Shown: one piece after another, positions 1 to 61,827 of the stretch | How positions within the stretch are numbered: position 1 is the stretch's first letter | How the letters are laid out: the number at the start of each line of letters is the position of its first letter | Assembly (NCBI GenBank): GCA_965208575.1 | Contig: CBDBOV010000006.1 | Coordinates: 512,001-576,000 of the forward strand | Reading direction: 5' to 3' | Origin: Spirochaetia bacterium | Lineage (GTDB): Bacteria > Spirochaetota > Spirochaetia > SZUA-6 > Bin103 | Length of the DNA: 64,000 nucleotides | Made by a program: the position numbers and the translations under genes | Notes under the pieces: model-generated | What the model was told of the DNA's origin: nothing | The model's database searches: none | What the model saw: only the letters and a program-made list of their open reading frames with translations

Positions 1-1140
1 CGTGTGGGCCTCAGGCGTCGCTCTCCCCCTGCCCTTCCAGTAGGAGTCGTTGATCGCTTCCACATCGAGTGCCATCTGGACCGCGTGGCGAACTCTGAGG
101 TCGTTGGTCGGCTCCACGGCGAGATTCATCGCAAGACCCATTCCGCTCTCATAATACTCCGTGACCTGGGTTTCGGGATTGGTCCGCGTGAGATCCTCAA
201 CAACGTCGACACTGTATATATGCGAATAGGAGAGCCCACCCAAGTAGTCGATCTGGCCCGACCGGAATGCTGCCAAACGCGTCGACTCCTCGGGCATCAC
301 CAACCACACGATCTCGTCGATATAGGGCAGGCGATTGTCCGGGTACTTCTCGTCGAACGCCCAGTAGTTGGGGTTCTTGGTGTAGCTCAGGGAGCTGCCC
401 TCGACCCAGTCGACCAGCTCATAGGGGCCGGTGCCAACCAGGTTGCGCCAATCCAAGAGGTCGCCGTGCTCTTCGATGACCTCTGGCGGCATGATGTTAC
501 TGGTGTAATGGTAGAGGATCGTCCGCTCCGCGGCGAAATTGGGCTCCTTTAGCCGAAAGACGACCGTATGGTCGTCGGTGGCCGTTACCGATTCGATGCC
601 GATGTCGTCGAGCTGCGACTGCTGCGCCACGATGGGGCTGCCTTCGGTGTAGCCACTGCCCAGCCCCAAATAGCGGTGCCAGTTGTATTCCACATCCTTG
701 GCAGTGAGCTCCCGACCATTCATCGGCGCCTTGTCGTGCCAGTGGACGCCGCTTCGGATCCGGACCGCAAGCGTCACCGGGTCGGTCCATTCCCAGCTCT
801 CGGCCAACTCACCGGCTATCGCGAAGAGAGGCAGATACCCCGATTGAAAACCGAATCGCTGCCTGTCTATCGCCCAGTCCGCGATGCCCAGCTTCTCGTT
901 CGTGAACATCCAGGCAACCTGACCCACGTGCCCTTGCCAGGGGTCGGAATTCGCAGGCTCGGCGACCGACCCGAAGGTGATGGTGCCGCCGTACTCGGGC
1001 GCGGTCACCATCTTGCCGGTGGCTGGGTCGCGCACCATTTCCTTCTCGGCCGCGGATGCTTCCTCGCCCTCGGCGGCGGCGAACGTAACGGTAGCCACCA
1101 GCGCGAACGCCAGCGGCAGCAATAGGAGTCTTGGAGTCAT
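1..1140 (-). CDS. Family-5 ABC substrate-binding protein (SBP1), 3' end runs off the window
   Basis: ATG at 1140 after GAGGAGGAG; manual translation MTPRLLLLPLAFALVATVTFAAAEGEEASAAEKEM...TAPEYGGTITFG; collinear with the SBP at 22366-24150. Confidence 0.9.
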   Translation of the reverse strand, partial: MTPRLLLLPLAFALVATVTFAAAEGEEASAAEKEMVRDPATGKMVTAPEYGGTITFGSVAEPANSDPWQGHVGQVAWMFTNEKLGIADWAIDRQRFGFQSGYLPLFAIAGELAESWEWTDPVTLAVRIRSGVHWHDKAPMNGRELTAKDVEYNWHRYLGLGSGYTEGSPIVAQQSQLDDIGIESVTATDDHTVVFRLKEPNFAAERTILYHYTSNIMPPEVIEEHGDLLDWRNLVGTGPYELVDWVEGSSLSYTKNPNYWAFDEKYPDNRLPYIDEIVWLVMPEESTRLAAFRSGQIDYLGGLSYSHIYSVDVVEDLTRTNPETQVTEYYESGMGLAMNLAVEPTNDLRVRHAVQMALDVEAINDSYWKGRGRATPEAHT

Positions 1141-1590
1141 AGCGTACTCCTCCTCGTTTTCGGGAGCGGTACTGCGTCCCTGTACCCGTGGTCTTGGGCC
1201 GGAAACTCCGACCCTTCTGGAATGGTCCTCGTAGATGTCGCACCCAAGGGCGCCGCGAGCGCCGCCCGGGATGGGCGTGGTGCGATGGGTGTGGATATGA
1301 ACGGGAGCGGATAGTCGTCAGCGGCGCGGATGACGGCAGAGTGGTGGATGCGGCTCGGTAAGCGGAAAGAGCGGTCAGTTACCGGGTGCTTGGTTTGTTG
1401 CGGAGCAGGACGGAGCAGGACGGAGCAGGACGGAGCAGGACGGAGCAGGACGGAGCAGGACGGAGCAGGACGGAGCGGTAGCGAACTGACGGATGCGGCG
1501 GGCTGTGTGATCGCGCTTCATCCGCGCTTGTCCTCCTCCCGGAGCCATCACTCTACCACACGCCCGGCCACGGTCAAGTACGCGTTTGGC
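1141..1590 (-). promoter_or_regulatory. Conserved SBP promoter/leader module, copy 1
   Basis: TTGACC (1572-1577), 16-nt spacer, TG-n-TAGAGT (1550-1555); alignable by eye with three other copies. Confidence 0.75.
1401..1476. repeat. 10-bp tandem repeat CGGAGCAGGA x7 plus partial unit
   Basis: Read directly; the homologous leaders have 3, 2 and 2 full units. Confidence 0.98.
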
Positions 1591-1756
1591 GGGTTGGCGG
1601 ACTGGTGGTTGCCACAGTTGCCTCGGAGCATATTCCGCTTCCAGTCGTGACCTGGATCCGTTCAGTCTGCAACGACCGGGCAAACCCTGCGGCTGCAAGC
1701 GGTCCGACATTGATCATGGTTCCCGTAGCGCCAGTGTCCAGGGCGAGAACGCCGGC

Positions 1757-2021
1757 TCACGATGCTGGTCCGTCTCCGTGCGATGCTTGCAACGCTCTCA
1801 ATCGCGTGAGAATGTCCGGCGCTTCCTTCAACTCGCACAGCGGTTGCAACTCGGCTTCAACCAAGGCCCAGTCGAGCCGGCGGCCTATGCGCAGCACTAT
1901 GCCTTCAATATCCGCCCAGTCACGCGAGCGATCAGCAAGGGCCGCCGATGAAGCAGAATTTCCAGCCGCGCTCCCGGCAGAACGACTGGATGTCATTCGC
2001 CAGCCGAAAGAGGTCGCGCAT
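1757..2021 (-). pseudogene. Internally deleted nucleotidyltransferase-like gene
   Basis: N-terminus MRDLFRLANDIQSFCRERGWKFCFIGG joined out of frame to C-terminus DRSRDWADIEGIVLRIGRRLDW; the middle is missing. Confidence 0.65.
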
Positions 2022-2238
2022 CCCGGATTCTGGCAAACATCGCCTGCTGCTGCACCAGCCCGGAGGTGGTGCGCACCGGACCCGCGAGCGTCGCTTCGAA
2101 CGCACCATTTAGTGCATCGATGTGGTCGGCCACCTCGACGTCGCGGAGTTCGGAGCGTCGCAGCGCCGCCAGCCTGGCGCCGGCAATACGCCACCGTTCG
2201 ACGAACCCGCGCAATTCGCCGTCAAGATCGCCCGCCAT
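1993..2238 (-). CDS. Small hypothetical protein, likely partner of the nucleotidyltransferase
   Basis: 81-aa ORF (FVERWRIAG...SGLVQQQAMF) overlapping the start of the downstream gene. Confidence 0.6.
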   Translation of the reverse strand: MAGDLDGELRGFVERWRIAGARLAALRRSELRDVEVADHIDALNGAFEATLAGPVRTTSGLVQQQAMFARIRDARPLSAGE

Positions 2239-2345
2239 GAGAGGCAGTGTACGCGTTTCCGATCAGGTCCGACAACAATCCGAATTGCCTCACGTCTTGA
2301 GCGATCAAGCACCCGATCAGGCAACCGATCAAGTGACGCGTCAGC

Positions 2346-3323
2346 TCAGCGGGATCGTTCGAGCTTCTGCAGGGCCCGGGTGGCGCGCTCGGCGGCGCGG
2401 GCGCCTACCCCGCCGGCCACCCCGCCGCCGCCGCGCAGGCGCGGGTCCAGCAGGTCGCGCAGCGCGTCGCCCACCATGTTCAGGCAGTACACCACCAGGG
2501 TCAGCGCCACCCCAGGCCACATCGCCAGCCGCGGCGCCATCTCCATGTACTGCCGCCCCTCACGGCTCAGCATCGTGCCCCAGCTCGGCACGTCCGGCGG
2601 CAGCCCGAAGCCCAGGAAGCTCAGGCTCGCCTCCGCGATGATCGCCCACCCGATCGTGATCGAGTAGATGATGATGATCGGCGCCGTGATGTTCGGCCAC
2701 ACGTGGCGCAGCAGCGTCCGCCACGACGGGCTGCCGATGGCGTGCGCCGCCTCGAAGTAGGCGTTGCCCTTGATGCCGATCACCGCCCCCCGCACCACCC
2801 GCGAGTTGGCCACCCCGGAGGCCAGCGCCAGCATGCCGATGATCTGCGGGATGCCCTGGCCGACGATGGTCATGATGGTCAGCAGCAGCAGCAGGCCGGG
2901 AAACGACATCCAGGCGTCCACCAGGCGCTGCACCGCCAGATCCACCTTGCCGCCCACAAACCCCGCCACCCCGCCGATCAGCAGCGACACCACCACGCTC
3001 AGGGTGGTGGCGGCGAACCCCACCCCCAGCGACACCCGCGCCCCGTACAGCAGGCGGCTGAACAGGTCGCGGCCGATGTGGTCGGTGCCCAGCGGGTAGG
3101 TGCCCGACGGCCCCTTGAGGCGGTCGATCATGGTCATTTCCATGAAGTGATACGGCGCCAGCAGGTCGGCGAAGATCGCCACCAGGCACAGCAGCAGCAC
3201 GACCGCACCGCTGACCGCTCCCACCGGCCGCTCCCTGATCAGCCGGCGCAGCAGGTCGCGCAGGAACGACTGCCCCTTCGCCCCCCGCTCCGGCAGCGCC
3301 TTCGGCGCGGTCACCTCACCCAT
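2346..3323 (-). CDS. Peptide/nickel ABC permease, OppC/DppC-like
   Basis: LGTDHIGRDLFSRLLYGARVSL; EAA loop; EASLSFLGFG; GDALRDLLDP. Confidence 0.95.
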   Translation of the reverse strand: MGEVTAPKALPERGAKGQSFLRDLLRRLIRERPVGAVSGAVVLLLCLVAIFADLLAPYHFMEMTMIDRLKGPSGTYPLGTDHIGRDLFSRLLYGARVSLGVGFAATTLSVVVSLLIGGVAGFVGGKVDLAVQRLVDAWMSFPGLLLLLTIMTIVGQGIPQIIGMLALASGVANSRVVRGAVIGIKGNAYFEAAHAIGSPSWRTLLRHVWPNITAPIIIIYSITIGWAIIAEASLSFLGFGLPPDVPSWGTMLSREGRQYMEMAPRLAMWPGVALTLVVYCLNMVGDALRDLLDPRLRGGGGVAGGVGARAAERATRALQKLERSR

Positions 3324-3392
3324 GGTGTCGCCTCCGTCACCCCGCGATTTCGAGGACGACCGCTGGTCAGCATTTTCGGACCACGCACCCCG

Positions 3393-4358
3393 TCACCCGT
3401 AGTGGACGCGCGGGTCCAGGTACGCGTACAGCACGTCGACGAGCAGGTTGATCACCATCACCGCGACGGCGAAGAACAGGTTGATCCCCGAGATCAGCGG
3501 GTAGTCACGATCGAACAGGGCGTCGATCATCAGCCGCCCCAAGCCGGGGATGGCGAACATCTGCTCCATGATCACCGAGCCGCCGACGATGATCGGTACC
3601 TGCAGTCCTACCAGCGTCACCACCGGGATCAGCGCGTTCTTGATCACGTGGCGCAGGATCACCAGCCGCTCCCGCAGCCCCTTGGCCCAGGCGGTGCGAA
3701 TGTAGTCCTGGCGCAGCACCTCCAGCATCATGGTGCGGGTCATGCGCATGGTGCTGGCCGCCAGGTAGGTGCCCAGGATCAGGCCCGGCACGATGAACAT
3801 GCTCAAGTGGCGCACCGGGTCGTCGCTCAGCCGCATCAGGCGCAACGGCGGCGACCACCCCCACCAGATCGCCGGAAACACCAGGATGATGGTGGCCAGC
3901 CAGAAGTTGGGCGTGGCCAGTCCGAAGATGGCGAAGGAGCGCCCCACGTAGTCGCCGACGGTGTCCTGCCGCACCGCCGAGTAGATGCCGATCGGCACCC
4001 CGATCAGCACCCCCACGATCACCGCCACCAAGCCCAATTCGATGGTGGTCGGCAGCCGGCCGCCGATCAGCTCGCCGACCGGTTCCGGCCGCAGCAGCGG
4101 GGTGCCCAGGTCGCCGCGCAGCAGAATCGCCCCCATCCAGCGCGCGTACTGCACGTGCACCGGCACGTCCAGCCCCAGCCGCCGCTCCAGCGCCGCCCGG
4201 TCGATGGCGGTGCCGCCGCCGGCCGCCTCCGCCATTCTGAACATCAGGAGGTCGACGGCGTCCCCCGGTATGAACCGCACCGACAGGAACACCAGAATCG
4301 TCAGCAGGAAGAAGGTCGGGATCAGCAGCAGGACGCGGCGGATGACGTACGCTCTCAT
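3393..4358 (-). CDS. Peptide/nickel ABC permease, OppB/DppB-like
   Basis: RMTRTMMLEVLRQDYIRTAWAKGL; ends YLDPRV. Confidence 0.95.
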   Translation of the reverse strand: MRAYVIRRVLLLIPTFFLLTILVFLSVRFIPGDAVDLLMFRMAEAAGGGTAIDRAALERRLGLDVPVHVQYARWMGAILLRGDLGTPLLRPEPVGELIGGRLPTTIELGLVAVIVGVLIGVPIGIYSAVRQDTVGDYVGRSFAIFGLATPNFWLATIILVFPAIWWGWSPPLRLMRLSDDPVRHLSMFIVPGLILGTYLAASTMRMTRTMMLEVLRQDYIRTAWAKGLRERLVILRHVIKNALIPVVTLVGLQVPIIVGGSVIMEQMFAIPGLGRLMIDALFDRDYPLISGINLFFAVAVMVINLLVDVLYAYLDPRVHYG

Positions 4359-4447
4359 GTCGGTGCAGACGCGGTCGCGTCTCGGCGGTCAAGCGCGAGA
4401 ACCCCGCCCTCGAGCGGGGTCCTCGCTACCTCGCAGCCCGCGGATCG

Positions 4448-6235
4448 CTAAGAGCCCAGCTCCCGCTTCAGATCCTGGTCCACCCACAGGTACATGAGAA
4501 CGGTGGACCGTTGCATCCCGCCGACATCGCCTTCCCCGTTGTAGCCCTTGATCCACGGCTGGGTGGCGCCGAACAGGGGAGCAACCGGCCCCCTGATCAT
4601 CCACAGCTGCTCGGCGATGCGCAGGTTGGCCTGCCGCGCCCACTCCTGCTGCTCCTCTACCGTGGTAGCGGCCAGCGCTTTCTCGTAGATTTCGTCGAAT
4701 ACCGGGTCGTTGTTGTTGTTGGGGTTCCAGCCGGCTTTCGACCAGTAAGAGTTTATCGGGGCAAGGCCACTGGGATACTCGGCAGCCCATACGTCGGTGC
4801 GCAAGCCTGGATATCCGTGGCTCATGCCCCACTCGCTATTCTGCGCGCGAGTTATTTCCTCGATCTCGACGTCGATGCCGATCTGCCGGAGGTAATCCAT
4901 GGCGATCTGGTAATAGCCGAGGTCGAAGAACTCGTAGTGCGAATAGATGGTGCTGAACCGGATGCCGTCTTCACCGCGCGGATAGCCGGCATCGTCGAGC
5001 AGCCTCTCGGCTTCCTCGGGGTCGTACCGATAGTATTGCTGGGTCTCCTCGGGCCACTCCTCGAACGGGACGGCATACCCGAGCACCCTGGCGCCGGTGG
5101 CCCCTTGCGGGCTTGCATCGCCCCAACCCTGCTGGTAATTCTCGGCGATGGACTCGTGGTCGATGGCCAGGCTGAGGGCCTGGCGCACGCGGATGTCGCT
5201 CCAGGGCTCCTTCTGGAGGTTGAAACCGAACGCGGTCTCCGACCGGTAGGAATACGGGTGCAGCACCAGGTCGGGTTTGGTCTTCTGCAGATTGACCGCC
5301 GAGTCGACACTGGTGAGATGGGAGTTGAGTCCGAACCCAATCCAGTCCGCCTGTCCGGAGCGCATCAGTGAGGTGATGGCTGTCATGTCGTTGACGACCA
5401 GGAACTCGATGGTGTCCGCGTAGGGCAAACGATTGTCCGGGAATTTCGGGTCGAAACCCCAATAATCGTCGATCTTGGTGTAGGTCCAGGAGCTGCCCTC
5501 CACCACGTCGGTCAGTTGAAAGGGGCCCGTTCCGGTCACGTTGCGCCAGTCCTGAATGTCTCCGAACTCATCGACCACCTCGCGGGCGACGATGTAGCCA
5601 TGCTCTGCCACGAGCATGCGGCTGAACGCGGTGACACTGGGCTCCTGCAGCTTGAATACCACCGTCGAATCGTCGGTAGCGGCAACCGATTCCCACTTTA
5701 TGTTGCAGATATCGAAGCCCCCCGGGCAGTCCGGGCTCGGCTCGCCGCCGTCCACCCCGAACAGGAGCCGCTGCCAACTGTAGGCGACATCGTGCGCGGT
5801 GAGCTGCCGGCCGTTCACCGGCGCCTTGTCGTGCCAGAACACGCCGTCGCGGATCTTGAACACGGCGGTGAGCGGATCCGGCCTCTCCCAGCTCTCGGCC
5901 AGTTGTCCGACGAGGGCCTCGTCGGGCAGGAACAGCGTAGTGTAGCCGACCTTGCTCCGGTCGATCGCCCAGTCGCCCACGCCGAGCTTCTCGTTGACCA
6001 GCCCGATGAAGGCTCCCGCGGAGTAGCGGAAATAGGGGTCGATCCCCTCCGGCTTGAAGTTGATGACCGCCCTGATCGTGCCGCCATACTCGGGCGCGGT
6101 GACCATCTCGCCGGTGCTCGGGTCGAGCACCATCTCCTTCTCGGCCGCGGCCGCCTCCTCGCCTTCTCCGGCGGCAAACGTAACGGTAGCCACTAGCGCG
6201 AACACCAGCGGCAGAAATAGGAATCTTGGAGTCAT
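4448..6235 (-). CDS. Family-5 ABC substrate-binding protein (SBP2)
   Basis: Signal peptide; FKIRDGVFWHD, GTGPF, RVRQALSLAID, AERLLDDAGY. Confidence 0.95.
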   Translation of the reverse strand: MTPRFLFLPLVFALVATVTFAAGEGEEAAAAEKEMVLDPSTGEMVTAPEYGGTIRAVINFKPEGIDPYFRYSAGAFIGLVNEKLGVGDWAIDRSKVGYTTLFLPDEALVGQLAESWERPDPLTAVFKIRDGVFWHDKAPVNGRQLTAHDVAYSWQRLLFGVDGGEPSPDCPGGFDICNIKWESVAATDDSTVVFKLQEPSVTAFSRMLVAEHGYIVAREVVDEFGDIQDWRNVTGTGPFQLTDVVEGSSWTYTKIDDYWGFDPKFPDNRLPYADTIEFLVVNDMTAITSLMRSGQADWIGFGLNSHLTSVDSAVNLQKTKPDLVLHPYSYRSETAFGFNLQKEPWSDIRVRQALSLAIDHESIAENYQQGWGDASPQGATGARVLGYAVPFEEWPEETQQYYRYDPEEAERLLDDAGYPRGEDGIRFSTIYSHYEFFDLGYYQIAMDYLRQIGIDVEIEEITRAQNSEWGMSHGYPGLRTDVWAAEYPSGLAPINSYWSKAGWNPNNNNDPVFDEIYEKALAATTVEEQQEWARQANLRIAEQLWMIRGPVAPLFGATQPWIKGYNGEGDVGGMQRSTVLMYLWVDQDLKRELGS

Positions 6236-6668
6236 GATGTACTCCTCCTCTTATTCGGGAGCGGGACTGCGTCCCGGTACCCGTGGTCTTGGGCCGGCAA
6301 CTCCGGCCTTTTCGAATGGTCGTAGTATTCGCGGCGCGGGATAGTGGATCGATGGGTATGAATACGGACGGGAGCCGCTACTAGCCCGTCAGCGGCGCGG
6401 TGGTGCGGTGAGCGGAGAGAGCGGTCAGTTACCGGTTGCTTGGCGTGTTGCGGAGCAGGACGGAGCAGGACGGAGCAGGACGGAGCGCTAACGCTTGCAG
6501 CGAACGGGCGGCCGCGGCGGGCTGTGTGATCGCGCTTCATCCGCGCTTGTCCTCCTCCCGGAGCCATCACCGTACCACACCGCCGGTATCCGTCAAGTAC
6601 GCGTTTTGCGCACGATACTCTCCCGCCGGCCGAACACCCCGGCTTGAACTACGACCAGCCCAGGAGCG
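6236..6668 (-). promoter_or_regulatory. Conserved SBP promoter/leader module, copy 2
   Basis: TTGACG 6591-6596, 16 nt, TACGGT 6569-6574; CGGAGCAGGA x3 at 6451-6486. Confidence 0.75.
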
Positions 6669-6757
6669 GAACAAACGCGTAACCGCTCGACACCGGGTTC
6701 ACAAGACAACGGCGGTTCGGTCAGACGTGTAGCCGTCTCAGAACGGTCGGCGAACCG

Positions 6758-6925
6758 CTACTCGCTGAGCAGATCGACGAAGCGCCGGTTGATGTAGTAG
6801 TTCTCGCGGCCCCGCCGGATGCGCTCCAAGGACCCGAGTTGAGTCATTTTTTCAAGGTAGCGTCGGGCCGTGAGGCGGCCGCATCCGAGTTCCCGCTCCA
6901 CTATGCCAATCTTGCAGTACGGCCA
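6758..6925 (-). pseudogene. C-terminal fragment of a Fic-family-like (HTH) protein fused to the broken permease
   Basis: PYCKIGIVERELGCGRLTARRYLEKMTQLGSLERIRRGRENYYIN resembles Fic C-terminal winged helix; unrelated to OppC. Confidence 0.55.
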
Positions 6926-7543
6926 CTTGGCGGCGCGGGCGCCTACCCCGCCGGCCAGCGAGCCGCCGCCGCGCAGGCGCGGGTCGAGCAGGTCGCGCAG
7001 CGCGTCGCCGACCATGTTCAGGCAGTACACCACAGGGTCGGCGCCACCCCCGGCCACATCGCCAGCCGCGGCGCCATCTCCATGTACCGCCGCCCCTCGC
7101 GGCTCAGCATCGTGCCCCGACTCGGCACGTCCCAAGCGCTGCACCGCCAGGTCCACCTTGCCGCCCACGAACCCCGCCACCCCGCCGATCAGCAGCGACA
7201 CCACCACGCTCAGGGTGGTGGCGGCGAACCCCACCCCCAGCGACACCCGCGCCCCGTACAGCAGGCGGCTGAACAGGTCGCGGCCGATGTGGTCGGTGCC
7301 CAGCGGGTAGGTGCCCGACGGCCCCTTGAGGCGGTCGATCATGGTCATGTCCATGAAGTGATACGGCGCCAGCAGGTCGGCGAAGATCGCCACCAGGCAC
7401 AGCAGCAGCACGACCGCGCCGCTGACCGCTCCCACCGGCCGCTCCCTGATCAGCCGGCGCAGCAGGTCGCGCAGAAACGACTGCCCCTTCGCCCGCTTCG
7501 CTCCCGGCGCCGGTAGCGCCTGTGGCGCGGTCACCTCACCCAT
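6926..7543 (-). pseudogene. OppC-like permease pseudogene, near-identical to 2346-3323 with a ~325-bp internal deletion
   Basis: Follows copy 1 to LAVQRL, then jumps at ~7132 to the DVPSWG region; a further 1-bp deletion near 7033. Confidence 0.88.
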
Positions 7544-7555
7544 GGCGGCACCCCG

Positions 7556-8521
7556 TCAGCCGTACTGGACGCGCGGGTCCAGGTAGGCGTAGAGGATGTC
7601 GACTAGCAGGTTGATGACCATGACCGCGCCGGCAAAGAACAGATTGATGCCCGATATCAACGGGTAGTCGCGATCGAACAGGGCGTCGATCATCAGCCGT
7701 CCCAGGCCCGGTATGGCGAACATCTGCTCCATGATGACCGAGCCGCCGACGATGATCGGTATCTGCAGTCCCACCAGCGTCACCACCGGGATGAGGGCGT
7801 TCTTGATAACGTGGCGGAGGATGACCAGGCGCTCGCGCAGGCCCTTTGCCCACGCCGTGCGAATGTAGTCCTGTCTGAGCACCTCCAGCATCATGGTGCG
7901 GGTCATGCGCATGGTGCTGGCCGCCAGGTAGGTACCAAGGATCAGACCCGGCACGATGAACATGGCGAGGTGGCGCATGGGGTCGTCGGCCAGGCGCACC
8001 AGGCGTAGCGGCGGCGACCATCCCCACCAGATCGCGGGGAAAACGAGGATGATGGTGGCCAGCCAGAAGTTGGGCGTGGCCAGCCCGAATATGGCGAAGG
8101 AGCGACCCACGTAGTCGCCCACGGTGTTCTGCCGTACTGCCGAGTAGATGCCGATCGGCACCCCGATCAGCACGCCTACGATCAGCGCCACCAGGCCCAG
8201 CTCGACGGTCGTCGGCAGCCGGCCGGCGATCAGCTCGCCGACCGGCTCCGGCCGCAACAGCGGCTTGCCGAGATCGCCGCGCAGCAGTATCCCTCCCATC
8301 CAGCGGCCATACTGCACGTGCGCCGGCACGTCCAGCCCCAGCCGGCGCTCCAGCTCCGCGCGGTCGATGTCGATGCCGCCGCCCATCGTCGCCTCCATCC
8401 TCCACACGAGGACGTCGACCGCATCGCCCGGTATGAATCGCACCGAGAGGAACACCAGAATCGTCAGCAGGAAGAAGGTGGGGATCAGCAGCAGTACGCG
8501 ACGGATGACGTACGCTCTCAT
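7556..8521 (-). CDS. OppB/DppB-like ABC permease
   Basis: Close paralogue of 3393-4358. Confidence 0.95.
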   Translation of the reverse strand: MRAYVIRRVLLLIPTFFLLTILVFLSVRFIPGDAVDVLVWRMEATMGGGIDIDRAELERRLGLDVPAHVQYGRWMGGILLRGDLGKPLLRPEPVGELIAGRLPTTVELGLVALIVGVLIGVPIGIYSAVRQNTVGDYVGRSFAIFGLATPNFWLATIILVFPAIWWGWSPPLRLVRLADDPMRHLAMFIVPGLILGTYLAASTMRMTRTMMLEVLRQDYIRTAWAKGLRERLVILRHVIKNALIPVVTLVGLQIPIIVGGSVIMEQMFAIPGLGRLMIDALFDRDYPLISGINLFFAGAVMVINLLVDILYAYLDPRVQYG

Positions 8522-8557
8522 GTCGACTCAGATGCCATGTCTCGAGGTTGCTCTCCG

Positions 8558-8656
8558 GCAGCCCGTGGCGAAACTCCGCCTGCATTCAAGCGGCGAATGC
8601 ATCCCGGCTGCCTCGCCGCTCTCGGTGCGACGCCGGGTCCCACCACCGGCTGCTAG
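8558..8656. mobile_element. Possible ~96-bp MITE
   Basis: Terminal inverted repeats GCAGCCCGTGGCG / GCAGCCGGTGGTG (11/13); right end runs into CTAG; absent from the equivalent spacer at 4359-4447. Confidence 0.45.
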
Positions 8657-8728
8657 TCAGAATGAGAGAGTTGGAAGGCGCGCGCATGGAACGCGCACAA
8701 CCCCCAGCTCTTGCTCACTCGGTTACCG

Positions 8729-8762
8729 GGCGCCCGGCGCGAGGCCTGGCGCGCCGGGCGCC
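8729..8762. other. GC-rich stem-loop downstream of SBP3 (mRNA-stabilising or terminator-like)
   Basis: GGCGCCCGGCGCG-N8-CGCGCCGGGCGCC; analogous hairpins near 4395-4426, 22296-22331 and 63903-63931. Confidence 0.6.
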
Positions 8763-8774
8763 GGAGGCGTTGCC

Positions 8775-10556
8775 TCAGAATCCGAGCTCCCGCTTCAGGT
8801 CTTGGTCAACCCACAGATAGGCAAAGGCGTTAGGCCGGTTCATCGAACCGAGATCGCCTTCCCCGTTGTAGCCCTTGATCCATGGCTGGGTGGCGCCGAA
8901 CAAGGGAGCAACTGGCCCCCTGATGGTCCACAGCTGCTCGGCGGCGCGCAGGTCGGCCTTCTGCGCCCACGCCTTCTGCTCCTCTATCGTGGTAGCGACC
9001 TGCGCGTTTTCGTAGTACTCGTCGAACTCGGGGTCGAGGTGGTTCGAACGAACCACCTTTTGCTTTGAGTAGTATTGCCCAAGCGGGGCCAAAGGAGAGT
9101 CATACTCTCTGGCCCATGTGTCTGACATCAACCCCTCATAGCTGTGCTTTGGGATCAGTGCGCCGCGTTCTGCGCGCGTGTGGACCTCGATCTCGACCTC
9201 GATGCCGATCTGCCTGAGGTAGTCCATGGCGATCTGGTAATAGCCGAGGTCGAAGAACTCGTAGTGACCGTACCGGGTCCTGAAGCGAACGCCGTCCGCG
9301 CCGCGCGGATAGCCAGCCTCATCCAGCAGCTTCTCGGCCGCCTCGGGATCATAGCGATAGTACCTCTTGACCTCATCGGGCCACTCTTCGAACGGGAGCG
9401 CATACCCCAGCACGGCTGGGCCGATCGGGCCGGAAGGGCTGGCATCACCCCACCCCTGCATGTAGTTCTCGGCGATGGCGTCGAAGTCTATGGCCATCGC
9501 GATGGCCCGGCGTACCCGAATATCATCGAAGGGCGGTTGCTGAACGTTCCAGAACATCGCCGTTTCCGACCGATAGGCAAACGGGTGCAACATCAGGTCG
9601 GGATTGGTCTTCTGCAGATTCACCGCCGAGTCGACACTGGTCAGATGTGAGTTGAGAGCGAACCCTATATAATCCGCCTGCCCCGAGCGCATCAGTGCGG
9701 TGATGGCCGCCGGGTCGTTGACGATCGCGTACTCGACGGTGTCCGCGTAGGGCAAACGGTTGTCGGGATATTTCGGGTCGAAGCCCCAGTAGTCATCGAC
9801 CTTCTCGAAGGTCCACGAGCTTCCCTCCACCACGTCGGTAAGTTGATAGGGCCCCGTTCCGGTCACGTTGCGCCAGTCTTGGATGTCCCCGAATTGCTCG
9901 ACCACCTCGCGGGCGATCACCAACATGTGTGCTCCGATGAGGGTGTTCTTCAGGGCTTGGAGCGAGGGCTCGTTCAGTTCGACTACCAGCGTAGAATCGT
10001 CGGTAGCGGTAACCGAATCGACCGGAATCTTGCCTCCCCACGACCGTACGACATCCAGGCCCGGCTCGTCGCCGCTCAAGCCAAGGAGCCGGTCGAAACT
10101 GTAGGCGACATCGTGCGCGGTCAGTTGCCTTCCGTTCACCGGCGCCTTGTCGTGCCAGAACACGCCGTCGCGGATCTTGAACACGTAGGTGAGCGGATCC
10201 GGGCTCTCCCAGCTCTCTGCCAGTTGTCCGGTGATCACCTCTTCGGGCATGTAGAGCGTGTCATAGGCGAACACGCTTCTGTCGATCGCCCAGTCGCCGA
10301 TGCCCAGGTTCTCGTTGACCAGCCCGACCCAGATCCCGGCGGTGTAGACAAAATAGGGATCGATCCCCTCGACCTTGAAGTTCACCACCGGTCTGATCGT
10401 GCCGCCATACTCTGGCGCGGTGACCATCTCGCCGGTGCTCGGGTCGAGCACCATCTCCTTCTCGGCCGCGGATGCTTCCTCGCCCTCGGCGGCGGCAAAC
10501 GTAACGGTAGCCACCAGCGCGAACGCCAGCGGCAGCAATAGGAGTCTTGGAGTCAT
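8775..10556 (-). CDS. Family-5 ABC substrate-binding protein (SBP3)
   Basis: Start at MTPRLLLL after GAGGAGGAG; binding domain is a close paralogue of SBP2. Confidence 0.95.
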   Translation of the reverse strand: MTPRLLLLPLAFALVATVTFAAAEGEEASAAEKEMVLDPSTGEMVTAPEYGGTIRPVVNFKVEGIDPYFVYTAGIWVGLVNENLGIGDWAIDRSVFAYDTLYMPEEVITGQLAESWESPDPLTYVFKIRDGVFWHDKAPVNGRQLTAHDVAYSFDRLLGLSGDEPGLDVVRSWGGKIPVDSVTATDDSTLVVELNEPSLQALKNTLIGAHMLVIAREVVEQFGDIQDWRNVTGTGPYQLTDVVEGSSWTFEKVDDYWGFDPKYPDNRLPYADTVEYAIVNDPAAITALMRSGQADYIGFALNSHLTSVDSAVNLQKTNPDLMLHPFAYRSETAMFWNVQQPPFDDIRVRRAIAMAIDFDAIAENYMQGWGDASPSGPIGPAVLGYALPFEEWPDEVKRYYRYDPEAAEKLLDEAGYPRGADGVRFRTRYGHYEFFDLGYYQIAMDYLRQIGIEVEIEVHTRAERGALIPKHSYEGLMSDTWAREYDSPLAPLGQYYSKQKVVRSNHLDPEFDEYYENAQVATTIEEQKAWAQKADLRAAEQLWTIRGPVAPLFGATQPWIKGYNGEGDLGSMNRPNAFAYLWVDQDLKRELGF

Positions 10557-10990
10557 AGCGTACTCCTCCTCGTATTCGGGAGCGGGACTGGGTCCGGTAC
10601 CCGTGGTCTTGGGCCGGACACTCCAGCCCTCTCGAATGGTCCTGGTAGTCATCGCACCCAAAGGCGCCCCGAGCGCCACCTCGGATAAGCGTGGTGCGAT
10701 CGCTGTGGATACGAACGGGTGCCGCTACGCCGTTAGCGGCGCAGATGGCGGCCGAGGGGTATATGAGGCTCGGAGAGCGGCGGGAGCGGTCAGTTACCGG
10801 GTGCTTGGTTTGTTGCGGAGCAGGACGGAGCAGGACGGAGCGCTGGCGCTTGCAGCGAACGGCGCGTCTACGGCGGGCTGTGTAATCGCGCTTCATCTGC
10901 GCTTGTCTTCCTCCCGAAGCGATCACTCTACCACACGTCCGGCATCCGTCAAGTACGCGTTTGCGGGTTGGTGGTTACCACCGTTGCAAC
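10557..10990 (-). promoter_or_regulatory. Conserved SBP promoter/leader module, copy 3
   Basis: TTGACG 10947-10952, 16 nt, TAGAGT 10925-10930; repeat x2 at 10816-10841. Confidence 0.75.
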
Positions 10991-11007
10991 CAGTGGGCGA
11001 TGGGATC

Positions 11008-11086
11008 GTTAGACACCCCGCCTCCCCTTGCGCGCGCCCAACCGCTTGGCGATGTCTCGGTACGAGTACCCGGCGAGCCTCCCCAC
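11008..11086 (-). pseudogene. Truncated HicA-like toxin
   Basis: GTG right after the hicB stop gives MGRLAGYSYRDIAKRL, then loses similarity (no GSH motif) and stops. Confidence 0.55.
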
Positions 11087-11329
11087 TCAGGCCGACACGG
11101 CAACGTCGAGGTCGACCGAACTGCCCATCCTGCGCAACCCATCGGGAATAGGATCATCGTGTTCTCGATACGACTCCAACAGCCTCCACGCAACATCCTG
11201 GGCGATCTCGACGGTTTCTTGAACGGTCCTGCCCCGGGCGACCAGACCCGGAAGCTCCCGGGAGGTAGCCAGGTAGTTGCCGTTCTCGACCCGCTCAACG
11301 TGAAGCCGAACGGTGAACTGATCCGACAT
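11087..11329 (-). CDS. HicB-like antitoxin
   Basis: YLATSRELPGLVARGRTVQETVEIAQDVA...DPIP. Confidence 0.8.
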   Translation of the reverse strand: MSDQFTVRLHVERVENGNYLATSRELPGLVARGRTVQETVEIAQDVAWRLLESYREHDDPIPDGLRRMGSSVDLDVAVSA

Positions 11330-16018: not shown

Positions 16019-16039
16019 GTTATGAGTATAGCACCTTGG

Positions 16040-16201
16040 AAGCCTAACAAGCCTAACAAGCCTAACAAGCCTAACAAGCCTAACAAGCCTAACAAGCCTA
16101 ACAAGCCTAACAAGCCTAACAAGCCTAACAAGCCTAACAAGCCTAACAAGCCTAACAAGCCTAACAAGCCTGACAAGCCTAACAAGCCTGACAAGCCTGA
16201 C
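16040..16201. repeat. 9-bp tandem repeat AAGCCTAAC x18 (three units are AAGCCTGAC)
   Basis: 162 bp read directly. Confidence 0.98.
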
Positions 16202-16399
16202 AGGAGGACACCGTCCGATGACGGACTACCGGCATTCCCTGCGTTCCACTTCTGCAGGGCCCTGGTTGCGCGCCCGGCGGCGTGCGTGTGCCTACGCCGT
16301 CGGCCAGTGAGCCGACGGCATGCGGCGGTGACGTGCGGTGCGACCCCGGCGCGTCGGCCGCGCGACGGGCGCGCGCAAACTCCGATAGACTGGCGGCTC

Positions 16400-17641
16400 A
16401 TGCAGAGTCGAGCCACACCGCCAGCCGACGTGTTCAACCTCGGCGTGCTCGGCGTCGCGCAGGCGCTGGGGCTGTCGGCCATGTCGATGATGATCTTCAT
16501 CGGCGGCATAGTCGGGCGCGGGCTGGCCCCGCGGCCGGCGCTGGCGACGCTGCCCCTGGCGCTTGCCATCATCGGTCTGGCCGCCAACACTGTCCCGGCG
16601 GCGCTGTTGGCGCGCCGGCTCGGTCGGCGGCGCGCGTTCGTTATCGGGGCGCTGCTGGCAACCGCGGCGGCACTGGTGCTCGCGCTCGCGGTCAGCCGCG
16701 GCAGCTTCGCGCTGTTCTGCGGAGCGGCCGTGGTGCTCGGGATGAACGGCGCGTTCGTGCAGCAGTACCGCTTCGCCGCCGCCGAGAGCGCAACGCCCGA
16801 ATATGCCGGGCGCGCCGTTGCCTATGTGCTGGTCGGCGGCATGGTGGGCGGCGTACTCGGGCCCGAGGTGGCCAGGCGGAGCCGCCATCTGCTGGAGACC
16901 GAATATGCCGGCGGCTTTCTGGTGCTTGCCGCACTGCTGACGCTGTTGGCGCTGGTGGTCAGCCGCCTGCGGGACAACGGCGCTCGCTCCGCCGCGCCAC
17001 CGCCCCATCGCACGCCGGTCGCAGGCGCGCCACCCGAGGTGCGGTCCGCAGCCGCCTCCCGCCTGTCCGCGCCCGGCTTCGGCGTGGCGGTGCTGGCGGC
17101 GGCGGCCGCCTACGCGGTCATGTCGTCGATCATGACCGCCACGCCGCTGCACCTGAACGCTACCGGCTTGTCCCTCGATCGAACCGCCATCATCATCCAG
17201 AGCCACGTCATTGCGATGTACCTGCCGTCGCTCGCCAGCGGCTACATCATGGACCGCCTGGGCGTCGCTCGCGTGCTCCTGGTGGGGGTGGCCGGTATGA
17301 CCGCATCGGTCGTGGTGGGGGTGTATGCGGCGAGCCTCCCGGCGTTCTGGGCCGCACTGGTCCTGCTCGGTCTCGGGTGGAACATGCTGTTTCTCGGCGG
17401 CACCGTGCTCCTGGCGCGGAGGGCCGCCGGGGCCGAACGCTTTCGCCTGCAGGCCATAAACGACTTCGGCGTGTTCGGCGCGCAGGCGCTGGCCTCCCTG
17501 TCGGCCGGGACCGCGCTGGTCCTGGTGGGGTGGGACGCCCTCAACCTCGCTGCGCTGCCGCTGCTGGCCGCGGTAGCGATCACCGTCCTGGTACGGCGCG
17601 CCGCCCTCTCAGGCACCGCCCGGCGACCCGCCGTTGCCTGA
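16400..17641 (+). CDS. MFS transporter
   Basis: About 12 hydrophobic segments; RRLGRRRAF, QQYRFAAAE, IMDRLG. Confidence 0.88.
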   Translation: MQSRATPPADVFNLGVLGVAQALGLSAMSMMIFIGGIVGRGLAPRPALATLPLALAIIGLAANTVPAALLARRLGRRRAFVIGALLATAAALVLALAVSRGSFALFCGAAVVLGMNGAFVQQYRFAAAESATPEYAGRAVAYVLVGGMVGGVLGPEVARRSRHLLETEYAGGFLVLAALLTLLALVVSRLRDNGARSAAPPPHRTPVAGAPPEVRSAAASRLSAPGFGVAVLAAAAAYAVMSSIMTATPLHLNATGLSLDRTAIIIQSHVIAMYLPSLASGYIMDRLGVARVLLVGVAGMTASVVVGVYAASLPAFWAALVLLGLGWNMLFLGGTVLLARRAAGAERFRLQAINDFGVFGAQALASLSAGTALVLVGWDALNLAALPLLAAVAITVLVRRAALSGTARRPAVA

Positions 17642-22365: not shown

Positions 22366-24150
22366 TCAGAATCCCATCGACTTCTTCAGGTCGAGGTCGA
22401 GCCACAGACGCGCCACGACCGTGCCGCGGTGCGTGTGTGCCAGCGTAAACTCGCCGTTGTAGCCCTTGACCCACGGCTGGCTGACGTTGAAGTTCGGTGC
22501 CTTGCCGGCCCAGATGTAATAGTGGTTGCGCAAAATGACCATGAGTGCTTCCTGCGAAGCCGCCTGCTGCTCCTCTACGGTAGACGCACTCTGCGCGGCC
22601 GCCACCAGGGCATCGTACTCCGGGTTGGACACGCCGGCGGGGTTCCATCCCGAGGTCGAGACGTTGTGCGCCAGCGGAGTCAGGATGCCCCACGGATTTC
22701 CCAGCGGAGCGGCGGTCATGGTTTCGTGATCATTATTGCGGATCCCATCCGCCCAATCTGCGGTCGGCATCACCTGCAGATCGATGTCGACGCCAATCTC
22801 CAGGAGCTGTTCCGCCAGGATCTCGAACTTGCTCACGTCGTACAGATCCCGGACCTCGACGTTGGTCTTGAACCTGATGCCGTCGGCGCCGCGCGGGTAG
22901 CCGGCCTCGTCGAGCAAGCGCTCCGCCTCTGCCGGGTCGTGCCGGAAGAATCGCTTGACCTCCTCGGGCCACTCGTCGAACGGGGGCGAATAGCCGACGA
23001 TGTCGATGGAGGTGTAGGCCTCCGGCGTCGCCCTTCCCCTGCCCTGCCAGTAGCTGTCGTTGATCGCTTCCACGTCAAGCGCCATCTGGATCGCCTGGCG
23101 CACTCTAAGGTCGCTGGTCGGCTCCATGGCGAGGTTCATGGCAAGACCTATCCCGCTCTCGTAATACTGGGAGACTTGGGTATCGGGATTGGTCCGCAGC
23201 AGATCGTCGAGTACGTCGAGGCTGGCTATCTTCGAGCCGCTAAGCGAACCCAGGTAGTCGATCTGGCCCGACCGGAATGCTGCCACCCGCGTCGACTCCT
23301 CCGGCATCACCAGCCAGACGATCTCGTCGATATAGGGCAGGCGGTTGTCCGGGAACTTCTCGTCGAACGCCCAGTAGTTGGGGTTCTTGGTGAACGTCAG
23401 GGAGCTGCCCTCGACCCAGTCGACCAGCTCGTAGGGGCCGGTGCCGACCGAGTTGCGCCAATCCAGCAGGTCGCCGTGCTCTTCGATCACCTCCGGCGGC
23501 ATGATGTGACTGGTGTATTGATAGACGATCGTCCGCTCCGCGGCGAGATTGGGCTCCTTCAACTTGAACACCACCGTGCGGTCGTCGGTGGCCGTTACCG
23601 ACTCGATGCCGACGTCGTCGAGCTGCGACCACTGCGCCACGAACGGGTTGACTTCGGTGTAGCCGCTGCCCAGGCCCAGGTAGCGGTGCCAGTTGTATTC
23701 CACGTCCTTGGCGGTGAGCTCCCGACCGTTCATCGGTGCCTTGTCGTGCCAGTGCACGCCGGAGCGGATGCGCACCGTGTAGGTCACCGGGTCGGTCTGT
23801 TCCCAACTCTCGGCCAACTGACCGACGATGGCGAAGTCGGGGACCCACATGCTGTCGAAACTGAGTTTCTGCCGGTCTATCGCCCAGTCCCCGATTGCCA
23901 GTTTCTCGTTCGTGAACCACCAGGACGCCTGACCCGGGTGTCCCTGCCCGGGATCGGAGTTGGGCGGCTCGGAGCGCGTGCCGAAGGTGATGGTGCCGCC
24001 ATACTCGGGCGCGGTCACCATCTCGCCGGTGCTCGGGTCGAGCACCATCTCCTTCTCGGCCGCGGCCGCCTCCTCGCCTTCTCCGGCGGCGAACGTAACG
24101 GCAGCCACCAGCGCGAACGCCAGCGGCAGCAACATGAGTCTTGGAGTCAT
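22366..24150 (-). CDS. Family-5 ABC substrate-binding protein (SBP4)
   Basis: Signal peptide; IRSGVHWHD, GTGPY, RVRQAIQMALD. Confidence 0.95.
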   Translation of the reverse strand: MTPRLMLLPLAFALVAAVTFAAGEGEEAAAAEKEMVLDPSTGEMVTAPEYGGTITFGTRSEPPNSDPGQGHPGQASWWFTNEKLAIGDWAIDRQKLSFDSMWVPDFAIVGQLAESWEQTDPVTYTVRIRSGVHWHDKAPMNGRELTAKDVEYNWHRYLGLGSGYTEVNPFVAQWSQLDDVGIESVTATDDRTVVFKLKEPNLAAERTIVYQYTSHIMPPEVIEEHGDLLDWRNSVGTGPYELVDWVEGSSLTFTKNPNYWAFDEKFPDNRLPYIDEIVWLVMPEESTRVAAFRSGQIDYLGSLSGSKIASLDVLDDLLRTNPDTQVSQYYESGIGLAMNLAMEPTSDLRVRQAIQMALDVEAINDSYWQGRGRATPEAYTSIDIVGYSPPFDEWPEEVKRFFRHDPAEAERLLDEAGYPRGADGIRFKTNVEVRDLYDVSKFEILAEQLLEIGVDIDLQVMPTADWADGIRNNDHETMTAAPLGNPWGILTPLAHNVSTSGWNPAGVSNPEYDALVAAAQSASTVEEQQAASQEALMVILRNHYYIWAGKAPNFNVSQPWVKGYNGEFTLAHTHRGTVVARLWLDLDLKKSMGF

Positions 24151-24568
24151 AACGGAACTCCTCCTCGTTTCGGGACGGGAGTGCTTCCCGGAACCCGTGG
24201 TTTCGGGCCGGGAACGCCGGCCTTTTCAAGTGGTTCTTGTAGTCGCGCCGCGGGATAGTGCGAGCCGCTACCTCACCAGCGGCGCAGATGGCGGCAGAGC
24301 GGTGGATGCGGCTTGGTGAGCGGAAAGAGCGGTCAGTTACCGGGTGCTTGGTTTGTTGCGGAGCAGGACGGAGCAGGACGGAGCGCTGGCGTCTGCAGCG
24401 AACGGAACGGCTGCGGCGGGCCGTGCGATCGCGCATCATCCTCGCTTGTCCTCCTCCCAGAGCCATCACTCTACCACACCGCCGGCATCCGTCAAGTACG
24501 CGTTTTGCGCACGATACTCTCCCGCCGGCCGAACACCTCGGCTTGAACTACGACAAGCCCCCGGAGCG
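24151..24568 (-). promoter_or_regulatory. Conserved SBP promoter/leader module, copy 4
   Basis: TTGACG 24490-24495, 16 nt, TG-n-TAGAGT 24468-24473; repeat x2 at 24359-24384. Confidence 0.75.
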
Positions 24569-61767: not shown

Positions 61768-61827
61768 AGTGCCGGGTAGTGCCGGGTAGTGCCGGGTAGT
61801 GCCGGGTAGTGCCGGGTAGTGCCGGGT
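61768..61827. repeat. 10-bp tandem repeat AGTGCCGGGT x6
   Basis: 60 bp, perfect, read directly. Confidence 0.97.

Follow-up and report, generated by a model that had tools for sequence, protein, structure and literature searches.

To our knowledge, simple-repeat phase variation has been described almost exclusively in host-adapted pathogens, where it mostly concerns surface structures and restriction systems. In Neisseria opa (CTCTT) and Haemophilus influenzae lic1 (CAAT) a non-triplet repeat lies in a translated region and the gene is ON in one frame of three. In the Escherichia coli tnaC-tnaA operon the position of the ribosome on a leader open reading frame (ORF) governs the loading of Rho on C-rich RNA past the stop codon; this system senses tryptophan by ribosome stalling and possesses neither a repeat nor a heritable switch. 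The nearest characterised system, and the one characterised precedent that we found for a repeat in a leader peptide, is pil1 of Streptococcus gallolyticus. In pil1, (GCAGA)n, with 22 copies, lies in a 38-amino-acid (aa) leader peptide and longer leader peptides melt a stem-loop intrinsic terminator (Danne et al., 2014; PMC3894217). In the 5' untranslated region (UTR) of H. influenzae hmw1A, (ATCTTTC)n is described as forming, with a G-rich partner, a hairpin that RNase III processes (Rapun-Araiz et al., 2025; PMC12721329). Here we analyse the leaders of four family-5 solute-binding protein (SBP) genes in a stretch of 64,000 nucleotides (nt) from a Spirochaetia bacterium (contig CBDBOV010000006.1, positions 512,001 to 576,000; this whole stretch is the window). 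With modest confidence we lean towards reading each leader as a repeat-gated regulatory upstream ORF, the frame of which would decide whether ribosomes reach the SBP start. Such a leader would probably act as a heritable random on/off switch for its SBP gene.

All four window leaders and their SBP genes are located on the minus strand, with position 1 as the first letter of the window. The leaders align with a per-column identity of 77% and share one order of elements, namely TTGAC(C/G), a -10 hexamer, a G-rich box, ATG, (TCCTGCTCCG)n, the block CCGGTAACTGACC, hairpins, GAGGAGGAG and the SBP start. Their parts are as follows.

1550..1577, minus strand: predicted promoter of leader 1, TTGACC at 1577-1572, a 16-nt spacer and a TG-extended TAGAGT at 1555-1550; 9/12 consensus matches
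1530..1540, minus strand: G-rich Shine-Dalgarno (SD)-like box of leader 1, GGGAGGAGGAC, 9 nt 5' of the upstream-ORF ATG
1375..1521, minus strand: upstream ORF of leader 1 in its present OFF frame, ATG 1521-1519, MKRDHTARR..., 48 codons, TGA 1377-1375 in the block
1401-1476, minus strand: 10-nt array of leader 1, (TCCTGCTCCG)7 plus a partial unit, 7.6 copies by Tandem Repeats Finder
1373..1385, minus strand: frame-check block CCGGTAACTGACC of leader 1, TAA 1381-1379 in one frame, TGA 1377-1375 in a second, the third open (PVTD)
1137..1517, minus strand: long open frame of leader 1 (f0), crossing repeat and block, its TGA 1139-1137 overlapping the SBP1 ATG (ATGA)
~1250..1500, minus strand: C-rich, G-poor RNA stretch of leader 1 resembling a Rho-loading site, from the repeat to ~130 nt past the block; limits approximate
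1161..1214, minus strand: two hairpins just 5' of the SBP1 ribosome-binding site (RBS), GGUCGG-AGUUU-CCGGCC (~1214-1196) and one of the nested CGGG...CGGGAC-GCA-GUCCCG...CCCG type (~1188-1161)
1138..1155, minus strand: SBP1 RBS GAGGAGGAG (1155-1147) and start, ATG 1140-1138
6232..6596, minus strand: leader 2, in the ON frame, -35 6596-6591, -10 TACGGT 6574-6569, box 6559-6549, ATG 6540, n=3, block 6435-6423
6451-6486, minus strand: 10-nt array of leader 2, 3.6 copies by Tandem Repeats Finder
10261..10952, minus strand: leader 3, -35 10952-10947, -10 10930-10925, box 10915-10905, ATG 10896, n=2, block 10800-10788 read through
10816-10841, minus strand: 10-nt array of leader 3, 2.6 copies by Tandem Repeats Finder
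23240..24495, minus strand: leader 4, -35 24495-24490, -10 24473-24468, box 24458-24448, ATG 24439, n=2, block 24343-24331 read through
24359-24384, minus strand: 10-nt array of leader 4, 2.6 copies by Tandem Repeats Finder

A sequence-only reading of the window had proposed that slippage of this repeat could switch the SBP genes on or off, and the anatomy on which it built was recovered in full. The upstream-ORF ATGs at 1521, 6540, 10896 and 24439 were all re-found, each preceded by SD-like sequence (GGGAGGAGGACAAGCG in copies 1, 2 and 4, GGGAGGAAGACAAGCG in copy 3). Tandem Repeats Finder reproduced the counts of n=7, 3, 2 and 2 plus a partial unit with 100% matches, the block has the same letters in 4/4 leaders, and the distance from ATG to block is 136, 105, 96 and 96 nt in copies 1 to 4. 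Copy 1 is halted by the TGA at 1377-1375 (enclosing ORF 1375..1710). The upstream ORF of copy 2 comprises 102 codons and ends at 6232, where its TGA (6234-6232) overlaps the SBP2 ATG (6235-6233) as ATGA. The ATGA-ending frame of copy 1, whose peptide end is ...PAQDHGYRDAVPLPKTRRSTL, is open for 378 nt upstream and would connect to the ATG at 1521 if one repeat were removed, as had been proposed. The caveat attached to copies 3 and 4 holds as well: their ORFs (10261..10926 and 23240..24469) enter the SBP genes out of frame. Leader 3 has lost 1 nt in its second hairpin, which shifts the ORF into another phase (spacing 240, phase 0), so that it passes the SBP3 ATG at 10556 and ends at 10261. Leader 4 is one A shorter ahead of the SD than its counterpart in the related genome G006 (189 versus 190 nt), and its ORF passes the SBP4 ATG at 24150 and ends at 23240.

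The -10 hexamer is TAGAGT in copies 1, 3 and 4 and TACGGT in copy 2, the promoter spacer measures 16 nt by the scan hexamers (17 nt after TTGAC), and the box consensus of the window leaders is GGGAGGA(G/A)GAC. A consensus scan picks up the predicted promoters of copies 1 and 3, in each of which the -10 is TG-extended, and by alignment a promoter of the leader 1 type is kept in 4/4 window leaders and in relatives. Another ATG, which follows the -10 at a distance of 1 nt and in some copies shares the MKRD frame (MAPGGGQAR), was dropped as a candidate start because it probably lies 5' of the transcript start.

With opa and lic1 the window leaders have in common a non-triplet repeat and one ON frame of three; in those loci the repeat is part of the structural gene and cuts the protein short, whereas the present repeat is confined to a separate upstream ORF and leaves the structural gene intact. 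With pil1 they share gain and loss of repeats that shift the frame and move the ribosome stop, the longer read turning the downstream operon on. The mechanics differ. The pil1 unit is 5 nt long and the pil1 peptide 38 aa, compared with units of 10 nt or poly-C and an ON frame of ~100-130 codons to the ATGA overlap in the present leaders. The pil1 target is an intrinsic terminator, whereas no intrinsic terminator is predicted on the leader strand in leaders 1-3 (scan of 1000-11200), and strict membership of the pil1 type was rejected for this reason. In contrast to pil1, the present system has a two-frame stop block after the repeat and a C-rich leader resembling a Rho site, and the module precedes at least 11 paralogous transporter operons in one genome, of an uncultured bacterium not known as a pathogen. 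Measured against pil1, the system is the same principle with different mechanics (long coupled ORF, stop block, no terminator hairpin). The likeness to hmw1A is a transcribed 5'-UTR repeat of variable number that pairs with a G-rich partner, the pairing with the box being predicted here; hmw1A output drops gradually with repeat number, with RNase III as effector and no frame involved, whereas here frame and phase are conserved. Within the open library that was searched, no paper contained the 20-nt repeat dimer, and among the titles and abstract openings listed there on phase variation of leader peptides, upstream ORFs and ATP-binding cassette (ABC) transporters there was no description of such a leader or of such phase-variable SBP genes.

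The source genome has 6.5 Mb and 67% G+C and contains ten leader copies with a block and an eleventh with a poly-C tract. In DNA searches the leader was found in 7/61 genomes including the window's own, all seven belonging to one genus; it is present in 6/10 other genomes of the genus and in 0/50 genomes from other genera of the order. The family set used below consists of 42 copies gathered from six genomes, at least 42 existing in all. In what follows G000 denotes the window's own genome and other G-numbers its relatives, while L-numbers and C5_139211 denote single leader copies. The block CCGGTAACTGACC is exact in 9 own-genome copies and has one mismatch in a tenth. In relatives it takes the form GGTAAGTCCTGACC, which is 3 nt longer and keeps TAA and TGA in the same two frames; an exact-block search of five relatives gave counts near a reversed-pattern control in three of them (G003, G005 and G007) because the block differs there. 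The upstream ORF starts with the aligned ATG in all decamer-type copies with an aligned start but one (GTG), and most copies have the SD-like box, which is absent as an 11-nt gap from 4/10 aligned own-genome copies. Outside the leaders, the repeat 20-mer (with up to one mismatch) and its complement are absent from the genome. Public runs containing the window stretch are labelled as sponge or marine metagenome, and the host bacterium is probably sponge-associated. A metagenome scan with the 20-nt repeat dimer returned 19 loci, of which one (L154) was a true leader.

Several copies depart from the common plan. One natural short leader (G000 C5:855300-855830) consists only of promoter, second hairpin and SD (~75 nt) and has neither upstream ORF nor repeat, and L007 (G003) has lost repeat and block, its MK.. 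start being fused straight to the second hairpin. In L173 (G000:C6:500900-501500) an unrelated upstream ORF contributes its 3' end in place of the 5' half of the leader, comprising promoter, ATG, repeat and block; the leader of the G006 orthologue, with an SBP gene 98.8% identical, is complete. L172 (G000:C6:486800-489800) and L171 (G000:C6:505000-506000) carry within the leader a ~270-nt element with terminal inverted repeats, which sits in the loop of a GCCGCU...AGCGGC hairpin and corresponds to a 222-nt gap in the protein alignment. The long frame of L171 remains open across the element. In L172 the element is itself split by ~2 kb with a 446-aa reverse-transcriptase ORF (PF00078, 111 bits), and this insert is probably a group II intron. 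L019 of G006 and window leader 2 precede SBP genes with 99.6% identity over 1010 nt, whereas the leaders themselves reach only roughly 85-90% by eye and show large in-frame indels; that the leaders diverge far more than the SBP genes suggests that leaders are swapped among paralogues by recombination.

The repeat site is hypervariable among homologous leaders and ranges from 0 to 22 units of TCCTGCTCCG. Other decamers occupy the same leader position in some copies (GCCTGCTCCG with 2 or 7 units, CCTGCTCAGC with 2 or 5 units), and further copies carry poly-C tracts of 9, 9, 10, 10, 12, 14, 15 and 28 there. The presence of distinct simple repeats at one leader position indicates independent expansions. 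As in contingency loci, a perfect non-triplet repeat is located between an SD-led ATG and a frame-conserved ORF, and repeat number differs between near-identical relatives: C5_139211 of G000 and L022 of G006, from different species-level genomes rather than strains, share leaders 97% identical and SBP genes 99.4% identical over 351 nt and have n=2 and n=6, respectively. A 1-nt insertion in C5_139211 brings the net difference to 39 nt, with the frame kept. Metagenome contigs from four runs were compared over 600-2400 and, among these assembled contigs, none bridges the leader 1 array; one X2 contig jumps 50 nt (1400 to 1451), with just 21 letters on its shorter side and a likeness threshold of 90%, and may come from a paralogue.

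The part of the leader downstream of the repeat is kept open in a fixed phase. In 24 of the 28 copies in which both block and SBP start are recognisable (5 genomes), the SBP ATG lies at a distance of 1 modulo 3 from the block TAA and no stop interrupts the PVTD frame up to the SBP start. This in-phase frame ends in ATGA in 21 copies and in abutting TGATG or TAATG in 3. Three further copies have no recognisable block and possess an ATGA frame open for 342-639 nt. The first 25 copies comprise 12 distinct in-phase lengths (190-463 nt) and 4 out-of-phase ones, so that 12/16 are in phase (binomial p=8e-4). Over 25 copies the PVTD frame contains 5 stops in total; the corresponding sums are 28 and 22 for the two alternative forward frames and 47, 40 and 25 for the three frames of the opposite strand. 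The pooled ratio of nonsynonymous to synonymous differences (pN/pS) of the upstream-ORF frame is 0.91, compared with 0.82 and 1.23 in the shifted frames, codon position 3 is not the most variable, and a compensatory hairpin change converts EFP to KSS in the peptide. The ratio and the EFP-to-KSS change indicate that an open frame in fixed phase is kept rather than a protein. By these comparisons the act of translation and not the peptide looks selected, a pattern as expected of a regulatory upstream ORF.

The state of each copy was called from the start codon aligned with MKRD. The sequence-only reading had suggested looking for an excess of in-frame distances between ATG and block, and this excess is present for short arrays (n 1-6, ON in 13/21, p=0.007) and is no longer clear when all decamer-type copies are counted (15/32, p=0.08). 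Long arrays (n=7-22) are ON in 0/7 copies versus the 13/21 of short ones (Fisher p=0.007). Among poly-C copies the start codon is joined to the long frame in 4/7; of the 3 in which it is not, the two that were checked are one C away. Five own-genome copies have 79 nt of non-repeat sequence in the distance from ATG to TAA, and a sixth, which carries a 9-nt deletion, has 70 nt, lengths that are in frame at n=3. In the remaining own-genome copies this part measures 78, 80 or 81 nt, in each case restoring the frame for the copy's n of 1 or 2, and the indels responsible lie at several different places.

The RNA downstream of the repeat has a skewed composition. In 100-nt windows of leader 1, (C-G)/(C+G) is 0.29-0.48, compared with a genome 99th percentile of 0.306 and a 99.9th of 0.424, and the 130 nt after the block have a C content of 0.48 and a G content of 0.21. 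The skew is 0.23-0.48 around and after the block in 9/9 copies examined (five genomes). C-rich, G-poor RNA loads Rho. With a skew of ~0.3-0.48 in 100-nt windows, such RNA extends from the repeat to ~100-130 nt past the block, in keeping with the ~80-100 nt after the stop codon that a tna-like leader calls for, and the genome encodes Rho (TIGR00767, 699.4 bits, cut-off 509.45). The combination of a leader ORF and C-rich RNA resembles tnaC-tnaA, and composition and Rho gene together suggest a role for Rho here. The conserved hairpins have no U tail. Their consensus fold over 28 copies includes one pair with a GC to AU compensatory change in 5 sequences and several G-U changes, its covariation term being just -0.34 kcal/mol. 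A weak pairing of the SBP1 GGAG with the CUCC of codons 2-3 is predicted and might help coupling at the ATGA; these pairs are invariant and hence uninformative. A large structured riboswitch-like RNA was dropped as a candidate after a shuffle test (z 0.24, 1.59), because folding was no more stable than that of shuffles. Rfam searches were negative, both for the whole window (gathering score) and for 1100-1650 (E up to 1).

Non-triplet repeats upstream of SBP genes are not restricted to this leader family. Tandem Repeats Finder, run on the whole genome (period of at least 4, at least 3.5 copies, at least 95% matches), yields 48 arrays. Ten of the 20 non-triplet arrays are located within 700 nt upstream of a same-strand family-5 SBP gene, a zone that makes up 1.28% of the genome, versus 0/28 arrays with triplet periods (Fisher p=3e-5). 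Four of the ten are the decamers of the leader family and six consist of other units (TCGTCCTC, CGACTAC(C), GCTCACC, TCGGCGTGGC). The six are perfect repeats of a 7-, 8- or 10-nt unit, lie 238-422 nt 5' of SBP genes and belong to leaders that cannot be aligned with the family.

G000 C3:287503-287598, non-triplet repeat upstream of an SBP gene
G000 C3:649656-649711, non-triplet repeat upstream of an SBP gene
G000 C5:329257-329297, non-triplet repeat upstream of an SBP gene
G000 C6:1398421-1398450, non-triplet repeat upstream of an SBP gene
G000 C3:135798-135845, non-triplet repeat upstream of an SBP gene
G000 C6:878304-878393, non-triplet repeat upstream of an SBP gene, just 5' of a promoter's -35

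In 4 of the 5 others tabulated besides C6:878304, two frames stop 3-56 nt after the repeat and the third is open for 216-380 nt; one of these four likewise has its open frame closed by an ATGA at the SBP start. The design seems to have arisen several times, given that the leader family uses three decamer variants and poly-C whereas 7- and 8-nt units occur elsewhere; in the leader family it is accompanied by the two-frame stop block and by C-rich RNA that would be sensitive to Rho.

Read together, these features would fit the following mechanism. Each SBP operon would have its own sigma-70-type promoter and a 350-450-nt leader serving as regulatory upstream ORF, with five parts: the box and ATG (MKRD...), the non-triplet repeat, the two-stop block, a C-rich stretch of ~190-260 nt open in the third frame, and the stop that overlaps the SBP start. 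Replication slippage of the repeat would alter the frame in which ribosomes meet the block. In one frame of three they would continue to the SBP start (ON), while in the other two they would halt ~240 nt upstream of it (OFF or low). By reading on, ribosomes in the ON frame would prevent the leader from folding and deny Rho access to the C-rich RNA, and they would terminate and reinitiate at the SBP start through the ATGA overlap. In the OFF state the naked C-rich leader would permit Rho-dependent termination, the SBP RBS would stay folded, or both. Long arrays may add a second brake, their spare units being complementary to the SBP SD. We infer that the upstream ORF is translated, that its frame controls SBP output, that Rho participates and that switching is fast enough for mixed populations.

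A number of observations weigh against a frame-gated switch. Enrichment of the ON frame is weak overall, at 15/32 for the decamer-type copies and 19/39 with the seven poly-C copies included (p=0.03), and every binomial frame test overstates significance because related copies are treated as independent. The contrast in stop codons is weaker than its totals, since most stops of the two other forward frames represent one conserved stop each. Four copies depart from the common phase, namely window copies 3 and 4, C5_139211 and L030. The deletions in leaders 3 and 4 are each 1 nt, near the 3' end and in a short homopolymer run by comparison with the nearest relative; they may reflect real decay or assembly error, and poly-C lengths and one-base differences in general could be assembly errors. 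Among 12 independent nearest-neighbour pairs, 9 differ in length from block to SBP and the difference is a multiple of 3 in 5/9; the four others involve the four out-of-phase copies, each a singleton. Gap runs in the nucleotide alignment are multiples of 3 in 18/37 cases. Six copies have no SD-like box (four on the C5 contig of G000, L018 and L022). The SBP genes possess strong SDs of their own, so coupling may be unnecessary for their translation, and whole-leader folding is no better than that of shuffled sequence (z as above). The proposal of a slippage switch is thus partly borne out: a translated-type upstream ORF, a frame set by the repeat and coupling to the SBP gene are favoured by the phase, stop-block, short-array and orthologue comparisons, while the preference for the ON frame is unclear over the 32 decamer-type copies (p=0.08).

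Some of the same observations could be explained without a frame. If the repeat were a variable anti-SD arm for the 5' box or the SBP RBS, its length would tune output gradually as an RNA-only rheostat. The repeat unit GUCCUGCUCC is a 9/10 complement of the box GGAGGAGGAC and an 8/10 complement of GGAGGAGUAC at the SBP start. Of the 11 copies with both box and repeats, 10 have the box paired mainly with repeats in ensemble folds, a helix also present in the minimum-free-energy structure of leader 2, and the SBP SD pairs with repeats in 5/5 copies with n of at least 6 (share 0.33-1.0) and in 0/13 at n 1-5 (share up to 0.04), which fits the OFF frame of all long arrays (n of at least 7). The hmw 5'-UTR hairpin (PMC12721329) offers a precedent. 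The predicted SD pairing is possible support for this rheostat or for a second brake in long arrays. An RNA-only control nevertheless appears unlikely to us, as it leaves unexplained the conserved phase and open frame, the two-frame stop block and the compensating 1-nt indels; the repeat is retained in copies without the box, poly-C, a poor complement of the box, takes the place of the decamer, and the folds, computed for naked RNA at equilibrium, do not exceed shuffles in stability. A target for a factor acting in trans, with the C-rich repeat or poly-C as a variable-length site for a small RNA or RNA-binding protein, would account for a C-rich tract kept at one place in differing forms and resembles the G-repeat of the Helicobacter pylori tlpB leader, which is reported to be targeted by RepG (PMC8295292). 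The search for the 20-mer or its complement revealed no second genomic locus, and this explanation is silent on frame conservation; we give it hardly any weight.

The frame itself could also have other origins. A neutral microsatellite in a duplicated leader, with the open frame a relic or a by-product of high G+C or C-rich composition, would be in line with the scarcity of stops in high-GC DNA, with the relatedness of the copies by descent and recombination (L019 leader versus leader 2), with the absence of amino-acid constraint, with an ON fraction near one third plus noise and with the nearest-pair length differences. We consider it improbable, given that 24/28 copies share one phase over at least 12 distinct lengths and up to ~37% divergence, that frame-breaking differences are singletons only, that the stop block is conserved, that different repeat types occupy one site and that non-triplet repeats are ~40-fold enriched upstream of SBP genes, where triplet ones are absent. 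A real small protein of ~100-130 aa, basic and rich in Pro, His, Ser and Arg, with an independent role, perhaps alongside the transporter, and knocked out in some copies by the repeat, would explain the conserved frame, the start codon with SD and the ATGA overlap typical of operon genes. It is very improbable in the face of a pN/pS no better than that of shifted frames, a composition that follows the C-rich RNA, RNA-compensatory changes that alter residues radically, and tolerance of large in-frame indels including the 222-nt mobile-element insertion; the upstream-ORF product matched no Pfam family.

The genes downstream of the leaders encode components of family-5 ABC transporters, as indicated by PF00496, a signal peptide and adjacent permeases.

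1..1140, minus strand: SBP1, family-5 solute-binding protein, truncated by the window edge; 44% identity to SBP2 over 566 aa
4448..6235, minus strand: SBP2, 595 aa, Pfam PF00496 at 224.5 bits
3393-4358 and 2346-3323, minus strand: two permease genes after SBP2, PF00528 and OppC_N

A Pfam scan covering SBP2, SBP3 and SBP4 gave PF00496 at 224-249 bits, the signal peptide was recognised by eye only, and OppB/OppC-type permease genes (PF00528, OppC_N) are next downstream of the SBP genes. The 6.5-Mb genome encodes ~130 paralogues of SBP2 (132 tblastn matches >300 aa, most with 37-47% identity).

Further repeats were observed in the window and its genome. A perfect 10-nt repeat on the plus strand (AGTGCCGGGT x6, 61768-61827) is situated ~175 nt upstream of a class-III aminotransferase gene (60264-61592, minus strand), in the 337-nt gap between this gene and an OppC-like permease gene (61930-62910, minus strand), and represents a further non-triplet repeat at a leader-like position. 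At 16040-16202, a 9-nt repeat (AAGCCTAAC, 18.1 copies, 98% matches) lies at the start of the plus-strand ORF 16022-17641, the product of which begins with MSIAPW(KPN)n and matches the Major Facilitator Superfamily (PF07690); with its triplet period this repeat alters protein length and not frame. Three arrays of a 12-nt unit, GCTCGAT(G/A)CCCT, share one 30-kb SBP-rich region (G000 C6:477368-477419, 493672-493807 and 507461-507536, with 4.3, 11.3 and 6.3 copies, respectively).

Extended to the whole genome, frame gating would amount to a switchboard in which at least 16 nutrient-uptake operons are separately gated by non-triplet repeats in regulatory upstream ORFs and each cell lineage expresses a random heritable subset of the ~130 SBP paralogues, a picture that we put forward tentatively and hold with some doubt. 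If true, contingency-locus bet-hedging would serve metabolism in a bacterium not known as a pathogen, and not the surface antigens of pathogens. The leader would be a compact natural design for frame-gated control, and its signature, an open frame conserved in phase, free of amino-acid constraint and ending on the next start codon, could possibly serve as a general search for such switches in metagenomes. Stochastic heritable switching would then shape the nutrient-uptake repertoires of symbionts too.

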